Source: a bacterium
GTDB lineage: Bacteria > Bacteroidota > Ignavibacteria > UBA10030
DNA: 10,288 nt
Direction: 5' to 3'
Assembly: GCA_043803945.1 (NCBI GenBank)
Contig: JAZDJN010000001.1
Span: 1 to 10,288, forward strand
Shown here: one piece after another, positions 332-6,425 of the stretch
Position numbering within the stretch: the first letter of the stretch is position 1
How the letters are laid out: every line of letters begins with the position of its first letter
Program-made: the position numbers and the translations under genes
Notes under the pieces: model-generated
The model's database searches: none
Seen by the model: only the letters and a program-made list of their open reading frames with translations
Told to the model about the DNA's origin: nothing

Positions 332-500
332 GAAGAATTTTATTATTTGATTGTTTTCATAAGAATCTGAACATCTATCACATTTAAATCTTGGTGTTTT
401 GGCGTTCTTGGCTGCAAATCTTTCTCTTTTTCTGATCTTACTCAGTTCCATGCGTAACATAACTAATTCACAGTGCTGAAGTAGCTCAGTGGTAGAGCAG

Positions 501-614
501 TCCCGCAAGCCTGATGCTGCGGTAGCTCAATGGTTGAGCAGTGGTTTCGTAAACCACAGGTTGCCGGTTCAAGTCCGGCCCGCAGCTCAAATAAATCAGA
601 ATCGGCTGGCGGGA
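501..614. mobile_element. 114-nt insert bounded by imperfect inverted repeats and carrying tRNA-Thr(CGT)
   Basis: Left end TCCCGCAAGCCTGAT (501-515) versus the reverse complement of the right end (601-614), TCCCGCCAGCCGAT: one mismatch and one indel. The boundaries coincide with the breaks in the outer tRNA. Mobility is inferred. Confidence 0.55.
516..587 (+). tRNA. tRNA-Thr(CGT), CCA not encoded
   Basis: Complete cloverleaf: acceptor GCTGCGG/CCGCAGC; D-arm GCTC-AATGGTT-GAGC; anticodon stem GTGGT/ACCAC with loop TTCGTAA (CGT at 548-550); T-arm GCCGG-TTCAAGT-CCGGC; discriminator T587. Confidence 0.93.
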
Positions 615-635
615 TAAACCGCCGGTCCTGGGTTC

Positions 636-689
636 TGAGCCAACCTGTCCGCCATGTTTTTGGCGGAAGGCTCATCCACCTCTGGTGGA
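636..689 (+). repeat. 30-nt double-hairpin module with a nested 24-nt hairpin module, inserted in the T-loop of the outer tRNA
   Basis: TGAGCCAA|AGGCTCA-TCCACCTCTGGTGGA, interrupted by CCTGTCCGCCATGTTTTTGGCGGA (644-667). Related copies at 3389-3466 and 10238-10267. Confidence 0.8.
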
Positions 690-837
690 AACTCCCACCT
701 TCGGCTCTATCTTTTACTATTTCATTGATATCCAGGGAATACTCATTATTGTAATATTCGCATGAGTGTTCAAGTAGATGTGAAAGCTATTTTTTCCCTC
801 CCCAGTTTCCCAGAGAAATATCAGTGGTAAGTCATTT

Positions 838-3363
838 ATGAAACTCAACTTTCAATCCCTTCTTCTGATTGCGTACCTTACTTTTGGAACACTTATCGCT
901 CAGGATCGCAAAGGCCAGATCACCGGCCAGGTCATCGATGCGCGGACACAGGAGCCTCTGCCCGGCGTCAATGTTGTCCTGGTCGAAAAAACCAGGATTG
1001 GTGCTGTCACTGATATTCAGGGGAATTTCTCGCTGAAAGAAATTGAAGTGGGGGAATATGCCCTTCGTTTTTCTATCATCGGATATGAATCTGTCATCGT
1101 GACCAACGTTGTAGTCTCTACAGGGCGCAGTGCAAAGGTCAGTATAAAAATGCAAGAGACCACACTCCAGATGGAGGGACAGGAAGTCCGGGCAGATTAT
1201 TTTCAGCGTGCCGGTTCCATGAGCCCGATCAGCACAACCGGACTGGATGCAGCCGAAATACGCCGCTCACCAGGTTCTGTCCAGGATATTCAGCGGATCG
1301 TTCAGAATCTTCCTGGTGTCGGCAACTCAACGGATCAGACAAATGAACTTATCGTCCGCGGCGGTGCACCAAACGAAAACCTGACCGTAATGGACTATCT
1401 CGAAATCCCCTCCACCAACCATTATCCGAATCAATTCAACTCCGGCGGACCGATTAACATGATTAATGCAGATCTCATTCAGGATATTCAGTTTTCAACT
1501 GGTGGGTACCCAGCGAACTATGGAGATAAACTCTCTTCCGTTATGAATGTTGCAGTTCGGGAAGGCGATCGCGATCGACGGATAGCCTCGAACACCAGCA
1601 TGCACTTTGCTGGTGTTGGTGCAGTGCTCGAAGGTGGCATCGCATCAGGCCGAGGTTCATGGATCATTTCAGCGCGACAGAGTTTTCTTGAGGTGTTGGA
1701 TAAACTCGTCGGAGTCAGTTCTCTTGGACTGACCGCAGTCCCCAAGTATTGGGATGCACAGTGGAAGGTGGTCTACGATCTTTCGCCTCAGCATAAATTG
1801 TTGTTCAACGGGCTTCTTGGTGATGACCGGATCCTCATGGTTGGATCTGAGAAAGAACATAATGCAGCAAAGGCCGGCGTACGAGATTCGGTCAATGTGA
1901 ACGATATTGATTTTCACAGCTCACAATACGCTGTTGGAATAACACTGAAAAGCATTCTCGGAACCGTCGGCTATTCCGCTCTCACTCTCTATAGCTGGGG
2001 AAATTTCTGGGATATGGGGATGCGATCTAAATTCTCCTCGCGATCATATGATGCTGAGGGAAACCTTGGATCTGTTCAAACAATTTCAGACCGGACCAGT
2101 TTCTACGAGTATTCCCAGGAACGCTATCTCGGATTGAAATATGAAGCGGTCTATGGAATCACGAAAGCACATAATCTTGCCTTCGGAGCCCAATATCAGA
2201 CTGTGGCTCTGTTTAAAAATGATGTTAAGATCGATCGTGATACTGTTCGTTACAATCTCGATGGGCTCCCGGGATTTGAAATCCCAATGGTCGTGGTGCC
2301 TCCCTGGAATCTTTCCAAATCCATTAGCTTTGCGCGTGACTATAAGCTTGATGCTTATGTAAGCAATACCTGGCAAGTCAGTCCAGTAGTTATAGTCACT
2401 GGAGGGCTTCGCTATGATTATTTCAGTTACTCACGGTGTGCGACATTGAGTCCGCGCTTGAATTGTTCTTATCATCTTTACCCGCCGACCACAAAGTTAA
2501 CAGCCGCTTACGGAGAGTATTATCAAATTCAATCGTTTCCTACATACGGAGATCCACAGGATCTCGAATTTAATCGCTACCTGAAAAACAGTCATGCCCG
2601 GCACCTGGTCTTCGGGATCGAACATATTCTTGCCGAAGGGTTGAAGTTGAGTTTGGAAGGATACCAAAAATCCTACTCCGATCTTCCTGTGCGGCAGGCC
2701 TATATCTATTCCGCGGATCGAACTTTTCGCTCCGATACTGTCCTGAATCTTGGTATTCGTTCGGCGTATGGGATTGAATTCTTCATGCAGCAAAAACAAG
2801 TCACAAACACATACTTTACGCTCAGTTACTCCTGGTCTAAAACTCGGGATAAGGATCCACGAACACCGAAACTTGTTGAGGAGTACCCCTCGGCCTATGA
2901 CTATCCGCACATCTTTACCTTTGTCATCGGTCATCGGGTGAAAGATTTCCGAACCACACTGAACAATCTGCCATTCTACATTAAATATCCATCGTCTATC
3001 CTCCCATTTTCGGATGATATGGAAATCAGTTTGCGCTTCCGATTCCAAAGCGGAAATGTCTATACCCCAAGGGTCTATGTGACTGACGAACAGCACCGCG
3101 TCGGTGGGCGAGCCTGGACTCCGGGATGGTGGAAAGATGGAGTTGCGACAAATTCTGCACGCTACCCCGACTATCACCGGCTCGATATTCAGTGGATAAG
3201 CCGGTACCATCTGGCAGCGTATAATATTGAGGTTGTCTTTGCCATTCAAAACGTTTACAATCGGGCGAATATTTCCATGATGAATTATCGGAGTGATGGA
3301 ACCATTGAGAACGTTTATCAGTTTTCATTTTTCCCGGTGGCTGGTCTCAATGTTGAATTTTAA
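838..3363 (+). CDS. TonB-dependent outer-membrane receptor with N-terminal carboxypeptidase-regulatory-like domain
   Basis: 841-aa ORF with a signal peptide. GQITGQVIDARTQEPLPGVNV is typical of the CarboxypepD_reg-like domain. Plug motifs DIQRIVQNLPGV, LIVRGGAPNEN and GGYPANYGDKLSSV; barrel motifs GLRYDYF and LSPRL; C-terminal Phe (GLNVEF). Substrate unknown. Confidence 0.93.
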   Translation: MKLNFQSLLLIAYLTFGTLIAQDRKGQITGQVIDARTQEPLPGVNVVLVEKTRIGAVTDIQGNFSLKEIEVGEYALRFSIIGYESVIVTNVVVSTGRSAKVSIKMQETTLQMEGQEVRADYFQRAGSMSPISTTGLDAAEIRRSPGSVQDIQRIVQNLPGVGNSTDQTNELIVRGGAPNENLTVMDYLEIPSTNHYPNQFNSGGPINMINADLIQDIQFSTGGYPANYGDKLSSVMNVAVREGDRDRRIASNTSMHFAGVGAVLEGGIASGRGSWIISARQSFLEVLDKLVGVSSLGLTAVPKYWDAQWKVVYDLSPQHKLLFNGLLGDDRILMVGSEKEHNAAKAGVRDSVNVNDIDFHSSQYAVGITLKSILGTVGYSALTLYSWGNFWDMGMRSKFSSRSYDAEGNLGSVQTISDRTSFYEYSQERYLGLKYEAVYGITKAHNLAFGAQYQTVALFKNDVKIDRDTVRYNLDGLPGFEIPMVVVPPWNLSKSISFARDYKLDAYVSNTWQVSPVVIVTGGLRYDYFSYSRCATLSPRLNCSYHLYPPTTKLTAAYGEYYQIQSFPTYGDPQDLEFNRYLKNSHARHLVFGIEHILAEGLKLSLEGYQKSYSDLPVRQAYIYSADRTFRSDTVLNLGIRSAYGIEFFMQQKQVTNTYFTLSYSWSKTRDKDPRTPKLVEEYPSAYDYPHIFTFVIGHRVKDFRTTLNNLPFYIKYPSSILPFSDDMEISLRFRFQSGNVYTPRVYVTDEQHRVGGRAWTPGWWKDGVATNSARYPDYHRLDIQWISRYHLAAYNIEVVFAIQNVYNRANISMMNYRSDGTIENVYQFSFFPVAGLNVEF

Positions 3364-3364
3364 G

Positions 3365-3550
3365 AGCTTGGATGAAAAGTCCAACCACTGCGCCAGCGCG
3401 CACCTGTCCGCCGTCTTTCGTGCATTTTGCGTCCACCATCTTTTTGTCGGATCAGCCTCTGGCTGAGAAGGACACAAAGTATAAAATGAAATTCAATTGA
3501 TTTGAAATTTTATCATTTTTACAGTTCTTCCTTCGTATCCTTTAGTGGTG
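3365..3550 (+). repeat. Composite palindromic element, copy A: 23-nt hairpin, then an inverted-repeat body around an AT-rich spacer, with nested modules in the left arm
   Basis: Hairpin at 3365-3387. Left arm AACCAC|GAAGGACACAAAG is interrupted by 3389-3466. Right arm CTTCGTATCCTTTAGTGG (3531-3548). Homologous to 10119-10273. Confidence 0.8.
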
Positions 3551-3581
3551 AAATTATTTCCTGTACTTTTCAATCGGGTCA

Positions 3582-3687
3582 CTAGCCCGAAGGCGTCCCC
3601 GCCTGCTCTAAAGAATTCATAATGGTGGGCAGGTCGCCGAGGGAAATAACGAAAATATTGTGCTCGGCGGGGACGCCTTCGCACTAG
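3582..3687. repeat. REP/REPIN-like long inverted repeat with an internal hairpin insert
   Basis: Perfect 16-bp inverted repeat CGAAGGCGTCCCCGCC (3588-3603) / GGCGGGGACGCCTTCG (3666-3681), flanked by CTAG at 3582 and 3684. Internal CCTGC...GCAGG hairpin at 3602-3633. Confidence 0.75.
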
Positions 3688-3785
3688 AAAATATTTATTG
3701 GACAACAATGAAGGGGGATTTGTCGATAGAGTGTCAAATTTCAGATTAATTCGTGACTTAGTAGCTGAGAATAAACGGAAGAGTA

Positions 3786-4311
3786 ATGCAACCATCCCTT
3801 TTTGATCTTATCATTGTCGGAGCGGGCCCCTCAGGCCTCGCTTGCGCTATTGAAGCTAAAAAAGCAGGCCTTTCCTGTCTGGTGCTCGATCAGGGTTCCG
3901 TGGTCGACGCAATCCGTAGATTCCCTTTCAATATGACGTTCTTTTCTACCGCTGGGCAACTAGAGGTTGGCAATATTCCTTTCCTCTGTAAAAGAAATCC
4001 ACCCGCACTCAATTATTATCGAGGGCGTGGAAGAGCGTGAATTGTTGAACGATGCCCTCTTCCCAATGATCGGCTACCAGCCGGATCATTCATTATTGGC
4101 AGGTCTCCATGTAGAGATCGACCCCGAGACGTTGATACCAGCTCACGACTCAAAGACAATGGAGACGAATGTGCCAGGATGTTTTCTTGCAGGTTCTATT
4201 GCGGCTGGCAAGTTTAACAATAAAATATTTATTGAGAACGGCAGGCTTCATGAAAAAGAGATCGTGAACCGAATACGTTCTCGATCGCAATCTCCCTCGT
4301 CATTGCATTGA
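3786..4311 (+). pseudogene. ypdA: YpdA-family (putative bacillithiol disulfide reductase, thioredoxin-reductase-like flavoprotein) pseudogene with internal deletion and frameshift
   Basis: First frame: FAD-binding DLIIVGAGPSGLACAIEAKKAG and FPFNMTFFST...LEVGNIPF. Second frame: IGYQPD, TMETNVPGCFLAG and FIENGRLH, the YpdA C-terminus. The two parts total only about 175 codons, and no central NADPH-binding domain is visible. Confidence 0.85.
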
Positions 4312-4336
4312 TTTTAGGGGAGGTTTTTGCTATTTT
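4308..4336 (+). promoter_or_regulatory. Candidate promoter for atpD-atpC
   Basis: TTGATT (4308-4313), 17-nt spacer, TATTTT (4331-4336), with an extended -10 TG at 4328-4329. Confidence 0.4.
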
Positions 4337-4475
4337 TTGCAAGCACAATAACTGATATTACGCATTACAAATTACATTAGCGTCCTTGACGAACTTGGCG
4401 GTTCAGGTTTTCAATCAAGGCTTTCAATCTTTACTCTGCGTAATGTGAATGTGATAAGACATGTAATATTTTTGA

Positions 4476-5900
<1,425 letters not shown>

Positions 5901-5903
5901 GTG

Positions 5904-6320
5904 ATGGCAGACAAAGAGTTTATGATAGAGATCGTCACGCCGAAAAAAATTGTTTTCAGCGGATCGGTTCAGAGTTTCTCCGCTCCGGGGATTATGGGTG
6001 GATTCCAGGTGTTGAAGAGTCATGCACCGTTGCTCTCATCCATCGGCATAGGCGAAGTGAAACTGATAGACGCGGTTGGAAAAGAAATTCACTATGCCAC
6101 GAGCGGCGGTTTTGTGGAAGTGCACGATAATAAAGTGGTTCTTATTGCCGAAACTGCAGAACGATCCGAAGAGATCGATGTAAGCCGGGCACAAGCCGCA
6201 CAACAACGGGCTCAACAACGTCTGAGTATAAAACGTGTCGAAACTGATATCGATCGGGCCCGCATTGCTTTGCACCGGGCACTGAACCGATTAAAAATTG
6301 CCGGTGCTCAGCAGAGTTAA
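5904..6320 (+). CDS. atpC: F0F1 ATP synthase subunit epsilon
   Basis: EIVTP, G.FQVL.SHAPLLS, SGGFVEV and AERSEEIDVSRA motifs; directly follows atpD. Start is ATG 5904 or GTG 5901. Confidence 0.97.
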   Translation: MADKEFMIEIVTPKKIVFSGSVQSFSAPGIMGGFQVLKSHAPLLSSIGIGEVKLIDAVGKEIHYATSGGFVEVHDNKVVLIAETAERSEEIDVSRAQAAQQRAQQRLSIKRVETDIDRARIALHRALNRLKIAGAQQS

Positions 6321-6343
6321 TCCATGGCCCCAAGTTCCATTCC

Positions 6344-6384
6344 GACAAGCTCATTCACCCGATGTGAATGAGCTTGTCTGTTTT
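6344..6384 (+). terminator. Rho-independent terminator of atpD-atpC
   Basis: Perfect 15-bp stem GACAAGCTCATTCAC / GTGAATGAGCTTGTC with a 5-nt loop, followed by TGTTTT. Confidence 0.85.
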
Positions 6385-6425
6385 AGAGGAGAGAGGTGAA
6401 GAATCGATGAGTCGATGCACGATGA

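Follow-up and report, generated by a model that had tools for sequence, protein, structure and literature searches.

How does a complete threonine tRNA gene come to lie between the parts of another one? This question is raised by positions 475 to 707 of the window, i.e., the whole stretch of 10,288 nucleotides analyzed here, which represents the initial 10,288 bases of contig C1 from an assembly of 5.54 Mb in 118 contigs. The contig start falls in a repeat, namely the end of a group II intron. In a preliminary description of the locus, three segments were joined to a tRNA cloverleaf with a second, distinct tRNA-Thr(CGT) in its anticodon arm, and either an inserted element supplying a replacement tRNA or a structured precursor was proposed as the explanation. 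The analysis reported here indicates that positions 475–707 probably represent the remains of a resident tRNA-Thr(CGU) gene into which a replacement gene was inserted, leaving its dead halves at both sides of the new gene.

Organization of the Nested tRNA-Thr Locus

The locus is composed of the following features, all located on the + strand:

475..500, +: outer tRNA-Thr(CGT) relic, 5' piece, comprising the GCTGAAG acceptor 5' strand, positions 8–9 and the D-arm, up to standard position 27 (26/26 positions as in the intact allele of genomes G110 and G004)
501..511, +: cassette left arm TCCCGCAAGCC, inverted repeat of 604–614 (10 of 11 positions pair, with one A.G)
512..515, +: spacer of 4 nt (TGAT) ahead of the inner gene, read from the sequence
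516..588, +: intact inner tRNA-Thr(CGT) without encoded CCA (ARAGORN; Rfam RF00005)
589..603, +: spacer of 15 nt, 3' of the inner gene, read from the sequence
604..614, +: cassette right arm GGCTGGCGGGA; its junction (CGGGA followed by TAAACC) recurs in relatives
615..635, +: outer tRNA 3' piece a, TAAACCGCCGGTCCTGGGTTC, standard positions 36–56 (19/21 positions as in the intact allele)
636..689, +: hairpin insert of 54 nt separating positions 56 and 57 of the outer T-loop, a member of a dispersed repeat family
690..707, +: outer tRNA 3' piece b, AACTCCCACCTTCGGCTC, comprising AACT, the T-stem 3' strand, the CTTCGGC acceptor strand, the discriminator T and one extra base (17/18 positions as in the intact allele)

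The cassette at 501–614 thus comprises 114 nt and ends in inverted repeats of 11 nt. No ORF was found in it, the tRNA being its sole gene, and the distance from the outer 5' piece to the inner gene amounts to 15 nt. Downstream of the tRNA, the window contains a TonB-dependent receptor gene (838–3363), followed by atpD and atpC; in several relatives, the tRNA is located directly upstream of atpD. A consensus scan of positions 250–900 returned no terminator-like site, and no promoter-like site was obtained on the + strand upstream of position 475 by applying sigma-70 rules, which may not fit this phylum.

The Inner Gene Is Intact and the Outer Gene Is a Relic

The inner gene was called by ARAGORN as tRNA-Thr(cgt) at 516–588 and by Rfam (RF00005) at 516–587, the latter with 70.6 bits compared to a gathering score of 29. 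The complete and distinct tRNA-Thr(CGT) that had been described between the outer pieces is therefore real, and the expectation that tRNA scanners would report this gene alone proved right for both programs. In a permissive Rfam search of positions 440–760, the inner tRNA was the only match above threshold, three chance-level matches to other families remaining far below theirs. The proposed inventory of the tRNA-Thr genes was also carried out: among the 47 tRNA genes of the assembly, tRNA-Thr is represented by one gene each with cgt, ggt and tgt anticodons, and the inner gene is the sole tRNA-Thr(CGT). The inner gene is probably the one that now does the work of the tRNA-Thr(CGU). Its allele, starting with GCTGCGG, differs from the plain allele of relatives at 14 of 74 positions.

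The outer pieces match the intact tRNA-Thr(CGT) gene of the related Ignavibacteriales G110 and G004 (GCTGAAG...GGGTTCAACTCCCACCTTCAGCTC) at 62 of 65 positions, which is far beyond chance and identifies them as remains of one former gene. Coordinates and sequences of the outer segments and of the inner gene had been given correctly in the preliminary description, as had the GCTGAAG acceptor strand and the canonical D-arm within 475–500. The strand CTTCGGC (699–705) pairs with GCTGAAG over 7 bp, including one U.G. Piece 615–635 contains the anticodon-loop TAA, the anticodon-stem 3' strand, the variable loop, the T-stem 5' strand and TTC; the latter (633–635), together with AACT (690–693), forms a T-loop beside a T-stem of 4 bp, the fifth pair being C-C. 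Absent from the outer gene are eight bases at standard positions 28–35, which read CGGTTTCG in the intact allele and correspond to the anticodon-stem 5' strand from position 28 and the loop through the second anticodon base.

Of the full cloverleaf proposed for the outer gene, the acceptor stem, the D-arm and the T-loop (TTC/AACT) were thus recovered, but the anticodon arm is incomplete and no tRNA is called from the joined segments at thresholds of 80% or above. The splice of 475–500, 615–635 and 690–707, generated programmatically, yielded no ARAGORN call at the default, 90% and 80% thresholds, and just a 'tRNA-???' at 70%. Applied to the genomic window with its intron options, the program likewise reported no outer tRNA, and lowered thresholds resulted in spurious calls elsewhere only. 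Since eight bases including the first two of the anticodon are gone, the outer gene is not restorable by removal of the insert. The joined outer pieces are no working tRNA but dead halves.

Plain and Nested Genes at the Same Locus in Genus g17

Genus g17 comprises 16 genomes, five of which have alignable flanks at the tRNA-Thr locus. G110 carries a plain GCTGAAG-type gene. In G115, positions 28–35 are replaced by 113 nt consisting of TCCCGATAATTTC, the dinucleotide AT, a GCTGGTG-type tRNA-Thr(CGT), 12 nt and GAAATTATCGGGA; the outer 3' half is otherwise identical to G110, and both halves abut the flanks of the single gene in G110. The upstream flank is common to plain and nested loci. G119, which is a one-contig genome, and G111 are nested as G115 is, and feature in addition point changes and a two-hairpin insert of 30 nt in the T-loop, which is absent in G115 and occupies the same position as the 54-nt insert of the window. 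The occurrence of plain and nested genes between alignable flanks supports the earlier suggestion that an element was inserted into tRNA-Thr and supplied a replacement. A single intact tRNA-Thr starting with GCTGAAG had also been predicted for relatives, and such plain tRNA-Thr(CGT) genes, ending in AACTCCCACCTTCAGCTC, were indeed found in G110, G118, G120, G004 and G024. Two homologous deletions in the nested locus would regenerate the plain gene, so that the comparison of G110 with G115 alone gives no proof of direction; the inner and outer alleles are identical across positions 8–48.

Several g17 genomes have lost parts of the outer gene. The outer 3' half and the right arm are gone in G117 and G112, the inner gene being unchanged, while G121 lost the outer 5' half and kept the right arm and the 3' half. 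Next to a live gene, G113 and G123 contain dead copies whose junctions, located at the same positions, enclose a bare hairpin (TCCCGAT-3 nt-ATCGGGA or close to it). Changes were counted relative to G115 for the inner gene, the outer halves and the flanks, respectively, and amounted to 0/73, 8/63 and 27/235 in G119, to 0/71, 2/26 and 16/235 in G117, and to 0/73, 12/63 and 18/235 in G111. The changes in the outer halves include U8A and broken T-stem pairs. The rate of change in the outer halves thus equals or exceeds that in the flanks, whereas the inner gene is invariant; the outer halves are free of tRNA constraint, and their partial loss does no harm to the inner gene. In the arms, 2 of 65 positions were changed, which is below the flank rate (counted by eye in the alignment and not significant); this low rate may leave room for some constraint on the stem, and both of the arm changes in G111 are non-compensatory.

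In G111, moreover, an element of 5.7 kb resides within the inner tRNA and encodes two Phage_integrase ORFs and an HNH ORF. Its scar consists of a 5' fragment of positions 1–41 and features neither arms nor a 3' half. This is a true classical integrase scar, unlike the one bounded by arms, and the tRNA-Thr gene of this lineage is a target for mobile DNA.

Recurrence of the Junctions across the Order

The flanks of tRNA-Thr genes were read in 40 relatives. The same architecture recurred in several of them: the outer 5' piece ending in GAGCAG is followed by an arm starting with TCCCG, an intact tRNA-Thr with a short spacer at each side, an arm ending in CGGGA and the outer 3' half starting with TAAACC. 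A strict left-junction pattern, defined as CAGTCCCG followed by 4–30 nt and the start of a tRNA-Thr, was detected at 29 places, which are distributed over 26 of the 277 genomes representing the order (one match for the reversed control), and the right-junction pattern in 34 of the 277 (three control matches). Similar splits are thus a feature of about one in ten of the relatives screened. When the phylum was sampled evenly, 7 of 401 genomes showed the junction pattern; all seven belong to the own order, which contributed 40 genomes to the sample, and the 361 genomes from outside it showed none. Because the patterns were built on Thr-tRNA sequence, this absence outside the order is weak evidence.

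The junctions, after position 27 and before position 36, are constant across the unrelated arms TCCCGATAATTTC, TCCCGATGCCGC, TCCCGACAAC, TCCCGATGG and TCCCGCAAGCC, and hold different inner alleles. Within each locus, the two arms are always complementary, although their sequences vary from lineage to lineage. The complete arm pairs read TCCCGATAATTTC / GAAATTATCGGGA in genus g17, TCCCGATGCCGC / GCGGCATCGGGA in G008, TCCCGATGG / CCATCGGGA in G027 and TCCCGACAAC / GTTGTCGGGA in G039; in L162, G115 and G008, arms of 11–13 nt are perfectly complementary. G012, G017 and G021 have the same junctions at a different locus, that of tRNA-Thr(TGT), where outer and inner genes are both of the TGT type. 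Multi-layer nesting was observed in G034 and G039. The nested architecture is present in independent assemblies, namely the one-contig genome G119, other MAGs and the metagenome contig L162. In L003 and L027, the outer 3' half matches the inner allele and not the outer 5' half, which means that recombination blurs these histories.

The inner allele of the window is live in three places, namely in the window itself, in G005 (3/73 differences) and on the metagenome contig L162 (2/73 differences). Each live copy resides inside a cassette with related arms, those of L162 being a perfect pair (TCCCGCAAACC/GGTTTGCGGGA), and the type of the outer gene differs each time: GCTGAAG with AACT in the window, GCTGGTG in G005 and GCTGGCG with an AAAT T-loop in L162. 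That the cassette and its tRNA travel together into different resident genes is best supported by this recurrence in three places; gene conversion among Thr genes may be an alternative source of the pattern. A contig of 359 nt from a fourth organism, obtained from public reads, contains the inner allele followed by ...GCCGGGATAAACCG. Of the public read runs listed, among which there was no RNA run, none covered a fraction of the sampled words above 0.17, and the reads of four runs yielded nothing but pieces of the tRNAs of relatives. In G034, a dead copy of the window's inner allele type forms an outer layer. A phage origin of the inner allele was also considered and rejected, the number of viral contigs carrying this allele being zero.

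A Dispersed Hairpin Repeat in the Outer T-Loop

The insert at 636–689 consists of two hairpins, and the loop of the first one accommodates a third. It produced 14 blastn-short matches in its own genome, including itself, in tRNA-derived and other contexts, and its core word CCTGTCCGCC and the complement thereof occur 43 times compared to approximately 7 expected occurrences. The insert is therefore a member of a dispersed hairpin repeat family. The full repeat copies listed among the blastn-short matches follow TTC, and many copies are located in the T-loop of partial 3' tRNA copies downstream of an intact gene. For tRNA-Met, at least four plus three tandem units of 99 bp were found at the ends of contigs C102 and C60; partial 3' copies of tRNA-Asn with the hairpin repeat are located on C29/C51, and hairpin-bearing partial 3' copies also follow tRNA-Arg, tRNA-Gln and tRNA-Glu. 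Dead copies in relatives carry hairpin units also in the D-loop and the variable region, and inspection of these copies by eye revealed none in a tRNA stem.

A link to RAYT/IS200 transposases is conceivable, but found no support. The genome contains 12 matches to PF01797 (Y1_Tnp), and a search of their flanks for hairpin motifs returned nothing beyond three stray matches; the motifs searched do not flank the PF01797 genes.

Comparison with Known Systems

In a literature survey, which was mostly conducted at the level of titles, no description of a bacterial tRNA gene nested in another tRNA gene was found. The closest known system is tRNA-dependent lysogeny, in which mobile DNA likewise enters a host tRNA gene without rebuilding it (Guerrero-Bustamante and Hatfull 2024, PMC10865867). 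There, the insert of actinobacteriophages is a whole prophage featuring its own integrase and a common core of approximately 10 bp between attP and attB (PMC10865867). Here, by contrast, a cassette of 110–140 nt with a tRNA as its sole gene ends in inverted repeats, shares no core with its target and has cost the latter eight bases, and the tRNA resides within a few bases of both cassette ends. As in a lysogeny-type prophage, the outer gene is broken and the inner tRNA has the same anticodon; the insert carries no other genes, however, and no direct repeat was recognized at the two junctions by reading.

Fragments of tRNA genes at att sites share with the present locus the occurrence of partial tRNA copies beside an intact gene (van der Gulik et al. 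2023, PMC9897764). In classical integration, one tRNA end is present as a direct repeat at the far side of a kb-sized element, whereas here both halves bracket a second complete gene. The anticodon loop and the T-loop are reportedly the classical crossover places in the sublocation rules of Williams from 2002. That the locus is not a simple att-site duplication, as stated previously, is confirmed by both halves being colinear with one gene, by the inverted repeats bracketing the insert and by the lack of an integrase ORF in the 114 nt. Classical att-site fragments explain the scar in G111, but not the nested one.

REP/REPIN sequences, PATE and the Rickettsia palindromic elements, which occur inside genes, are small palindromic elements. 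The inserts in the T-loop, D-loop and variable loop resemble them in being short, GC-rich, multicopy hairpins that nest in each other, but in contrast to REPIN-type elements no link to a transposase was observed here. We know of no palindromic element with a tRNA gene between its arms. In a comparison with MITE/REPIN-like elements, the cassette at 501–614 possesses terminal inverted repeats but does not show their copy number, target-site duplication or transposase: its right-junction word CGGGATAAACC occurs once in the own genome, eight target bases are lost where a duplication would be expected, and no transposase could be linked to it.

Interrupted tRNA genes comprise those with group I introns in bacterial anticodon loops as well as the archaeal introns and the split and permuted tRNAs. 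They have in common with the nested locus a foreign sequence in the anticodon region; here, however, the insert itself is a tRNA gene, and the exons lack an anticodon. Neither a group I intron nor an archaeal BHB intron is indicated, as no Rfam family besides tRNA reached its threshold in 440–760.

Alternative Explanations

Regarding the mechanism of insertion, the main alternative is a large integrated element of the tRNA-dependent lysogeny type, which would have integrated at the anticodon region and left the host tRNA broken, since it brought along a tRNA-Thr of its own; of this element, only that tRNA and the two ends would have survived. Inverted repeats form the ends of integrase core sites, and elements with tyrosine integrases targeting this gene exist in the lineage, as exemplified by the 5.7-kb element of G111. 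Yet all nested loci observed are compact, with spacers of about 2–25 nt at each side of the inner tRNA, and no intermediate with genes between the arms was seen using a pattern that required the tRNA near the left arm. Conservative recombination should also have retained the eight lost bases at one of the junctions, and the one integrase scar at hand, in G111, differs in retaining positions 1–41 only. Although the mechanism is documented for mycobacteriophages (PMC10865867), we regard a decayed element of this kind as unlikely.

The second possibility raised in the preliminary description was a structured precursor; in a broader form, namely that the outer shell and the bracketing stem are a functional precursor or scaffold required for processing, stability or regulation of the inner tRNA, it did not withstand the comparison with relatives and is considered very unlikely. 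In its favor, the outer acceptor strands are base-paired and the inner cloverleaf is present in the RNA structure predicted for 475–707 (−105.6 kcal/mol, z −5.55, 0/200 shuffles as good), the arms are perfectly complementary in several lineages despite differing sequences, and all hairpin inserts observed in dead copies fall in loops of the tRNA fold and none in stems. A low folding energy is, however, no sign of need, because it is expected from a tRNA plus palindromes. Of the 277 genomes of the order, 251 lack the strict left-junction pattern, the losses in g17 (3' half and right arm in G117 and G112, 5' half in G121) left the inner gene unchanged, the outer halves change at least at the flank rate and gain stem-breaking changes, and the arm changes in G111 do not compensate each other. 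Outer halves and arms thus decay or vanish in relatives while the inner tRNA persists unchanged.

An origin from separate tandem tRNA-Thr genes, in which deletions left the 5' end of one copy and the 3' end of another around a middle copy, is highly improbable. Tandems of live and dead genes and arrays of partial copies do exist (L029, L032, G113 and G123, as well as the 3' units after tRNA-Met and tRNA-Asn of the genome studied). Nevertheless, the halves in G115 abut the flanks of G110 and together represent the G110 gene minus eight bases, and the sequences adjoining the break points are mutually inverted repeats in at least ten lineages, which is unexpected from random deletions.

Least credible of all is an artefact, in which two tRNA-Thr alleles were wrongly joined during assembly, or a phase-variable segment that inverts between its repeats. 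The repeat at the contig start, the fragmentation of the source assembly into 118 contigs and the inverted repeats beside the inner gene would be compatible with these ideas, but the same architecture was recovered in many assemblies independent of each other, among them a one-contig genome and a metagenome contig, and the inverted orientation was seen in 0 of 86 genomes of the family compared to 12 of 86 for the forward one, i.e., both orientations were not encountered.

Proposed Course of the Replacement

For the preferred reading, replacement of the resident gene from within, the following course is proposed. A cassette of 114 nt with a different tRNA-Thr(CGU) allele would have displaced positions 28–35 of the resident anticodon arm. 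The inner gene would then most likely be transcribed from the old promoter as part of a longer precursor, given the gap of only 15 nt and the upstream flank common to plain and nested loci in g17, and the tRNA would be cut out by the usual tRNA end-processing enzymes. The outer halves would decay as relics, and a member of the 54-nt hairpin repeat would later have landed in the relic T-loop. The relic status of the outer gene, the colinearity of its halves with one gene, the exact junctions and their recurrence in relatives are direct observations. The manner of arrival is a matter of interpretation: the cassette may have entered as one small unit, through a process with specificity for the anticodon arm of tRNA-Thr genes, and our working idea is a non-autonomous cassette moved in trans by an enzyme acting on the anticodon-arm hairpin.

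To our knowledge, no known scheme accounts for a cassette that ends in inverted repeats, shares no core with its target, encodes no CCA and has removed eight target bases instead of duplicating any. Conservative integration by tyrosine or serine recombinases, integron attC recombination, DDE transposition and retro-insertion were considered and set aside, because none of them, reasoning from their general mechanisms, fits these features together. Neither an enzyme nor a duplication of the target site nor a common core was found to mark the junctions. Instead of repeated arrival, the cassettes may also go back to one ancient origin, with gene conversion and turnover of the arms thereafter.

With more doubt than confidence, a wider reading can be put forward, in which the Ignavibacteriales would harbor a new kind of mobile DNA: an enzyme-less inverted-repeat cassette of approximately 110–140 nt with tRNA-Thr as its sole cargo, which would home site-specifically to the anticodon arm, between positions 27 and 36, of CGU and UGU genes and destroy and replace the resident gene in one step. 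Its alleles would spread horizontally as self-complementing parasites and pile up as layers, and a related process would place hairpins in D-, variable and T-loops. Within this mobile-cassette reading, the hairpin units in tRNA loops suggest an activity directed at hairpin loops into which single-stranded tRNA DNA would fold.

Significance of the Nested Genes

The replacement reading implies that a foreign allele can take over from an essential tRNA gene present in a single copy, and that function is retained throughout. The resulting scar, a tRNA between the halves of another tRNA, is missed by standard annotation; in Ignavibacteriales genomes, it accounts for a class of tRNA fragments and of repeat arrays linked to tRNA genes. 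The junctions, recurrent and exact to the nucleotide, offer a handle for seeking the responsible enzyme. If the cassettes are mobile, they would represent a minimal self-complementing element and a route for the horizontal turnover of tRNA alleles.

Genomic surroundings of the tRNA locus

The nested locus, an intact inner tRNA-Thr(CGT) between relic halves of an outer tRNA-Thr, was found in the window together with the following features:

41-120, group II intron 3' end, domains V-VI (Rfam RF00029, 54.2 bits)
305-345, upstream of the tRNA locus, GC-rich hairpin CCAGACCGC-catg-GCGGTCTGG with T-rich sequence after it
838-3363, gene for a TonB-dependent receptor with CarboxypepD_reg and Plug domains

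The intron domains lie at the extreme beginning of the contig, where the assembly was probably interrupted by a repeated intron. The hairpin is possibly a terminator for whatever precedes it; the consensus scan made no call for it. In the window, the receptor gene and approximately 1.1 kb of poorly coding sequence separate the tRNA from atpD. In several relatives, the tRNA immediately precedes atpD.

Integrated element and 5' tRNA fragments

A nested locus of a genus g17 relative (G111:C5:21800-29000) was found to carry an integrated element, and 5' fragments upstream of intact genes were detected in the window's own genome, G000:

G111 locus 653-6413, 5.7-kb element inside the inner tRNA-Thr(CGT)
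G111 locus 747-1832, tyrosine-integrase ORF
G111 locus 4166-4663, HNH ORF
G111 locus 4670-5833, tyrosine-integrase ORF
G000 C12:760-1200, tRNA-His 5' fragment (positions 1-23) upstream of intact tRNA-His
G000 C44:8120-8420, tRNA-Arg(TCT) 5' fragment (positions 1-18) upstream of intact tRNA-Arg(TCT)

TTGGCAC motifs are repeated close to each end of the element, whose scar is a 5' tRNA fragment (positions 1-41). In the two G000 cases, ATCCCGAC...GTCGGGAT hairpins separate fragment and gene. PF01797 (Y1 transposase family) was matched at 12 places in G000, an unusually large set with open frames of 76-223 aa (for example, C31:48012-48356), and these could represent RAYT-like genes.

Tandem 3' tRNA units

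Partial tRNA units were repeated downstream of intact genes in G000:

C102:55613-56090, tRNA-Met(CAT), then at least four tandem 99-bp units (a lower bound; the array reaches the contig end)
C60:19300-19780, tRNA-Met(CAT), then at least three such units (likewise a lower bound at a contig end)
C29:8182-8400, tRNA-Asn, then repeated units of ~108 bp
C51:39860-40053, tRNA-Asn, then repeated units of ~108 bp

The tRNA-Met unit comprises the tRNA 3' part with a two-hairpin T-loop insert and 12 nt of downstream flank, and the tRNA-Asn unit the T-arm 5' strand, a hairpin insert, the tRNA 3' end, and a downstream terminator-like hairpin. Single units resembling the latter follow tRNA-Arg(ACG) on C27 and lie close to tRNA-Gln and tRNA-Glu fragments on C16 and C25.

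In two relatives, the right-junction word, where the cassette right arm meets the outer tRNA-Thr 3' half, recurs five times with spacing alternating between 98 and 154 nt (G050:C5:58917-59553) and three times at 84 nt (G155:C37:7044-7227). These arrays suggest that dead 3' halves were tandemly amplified downstream of tRNA-Thr.
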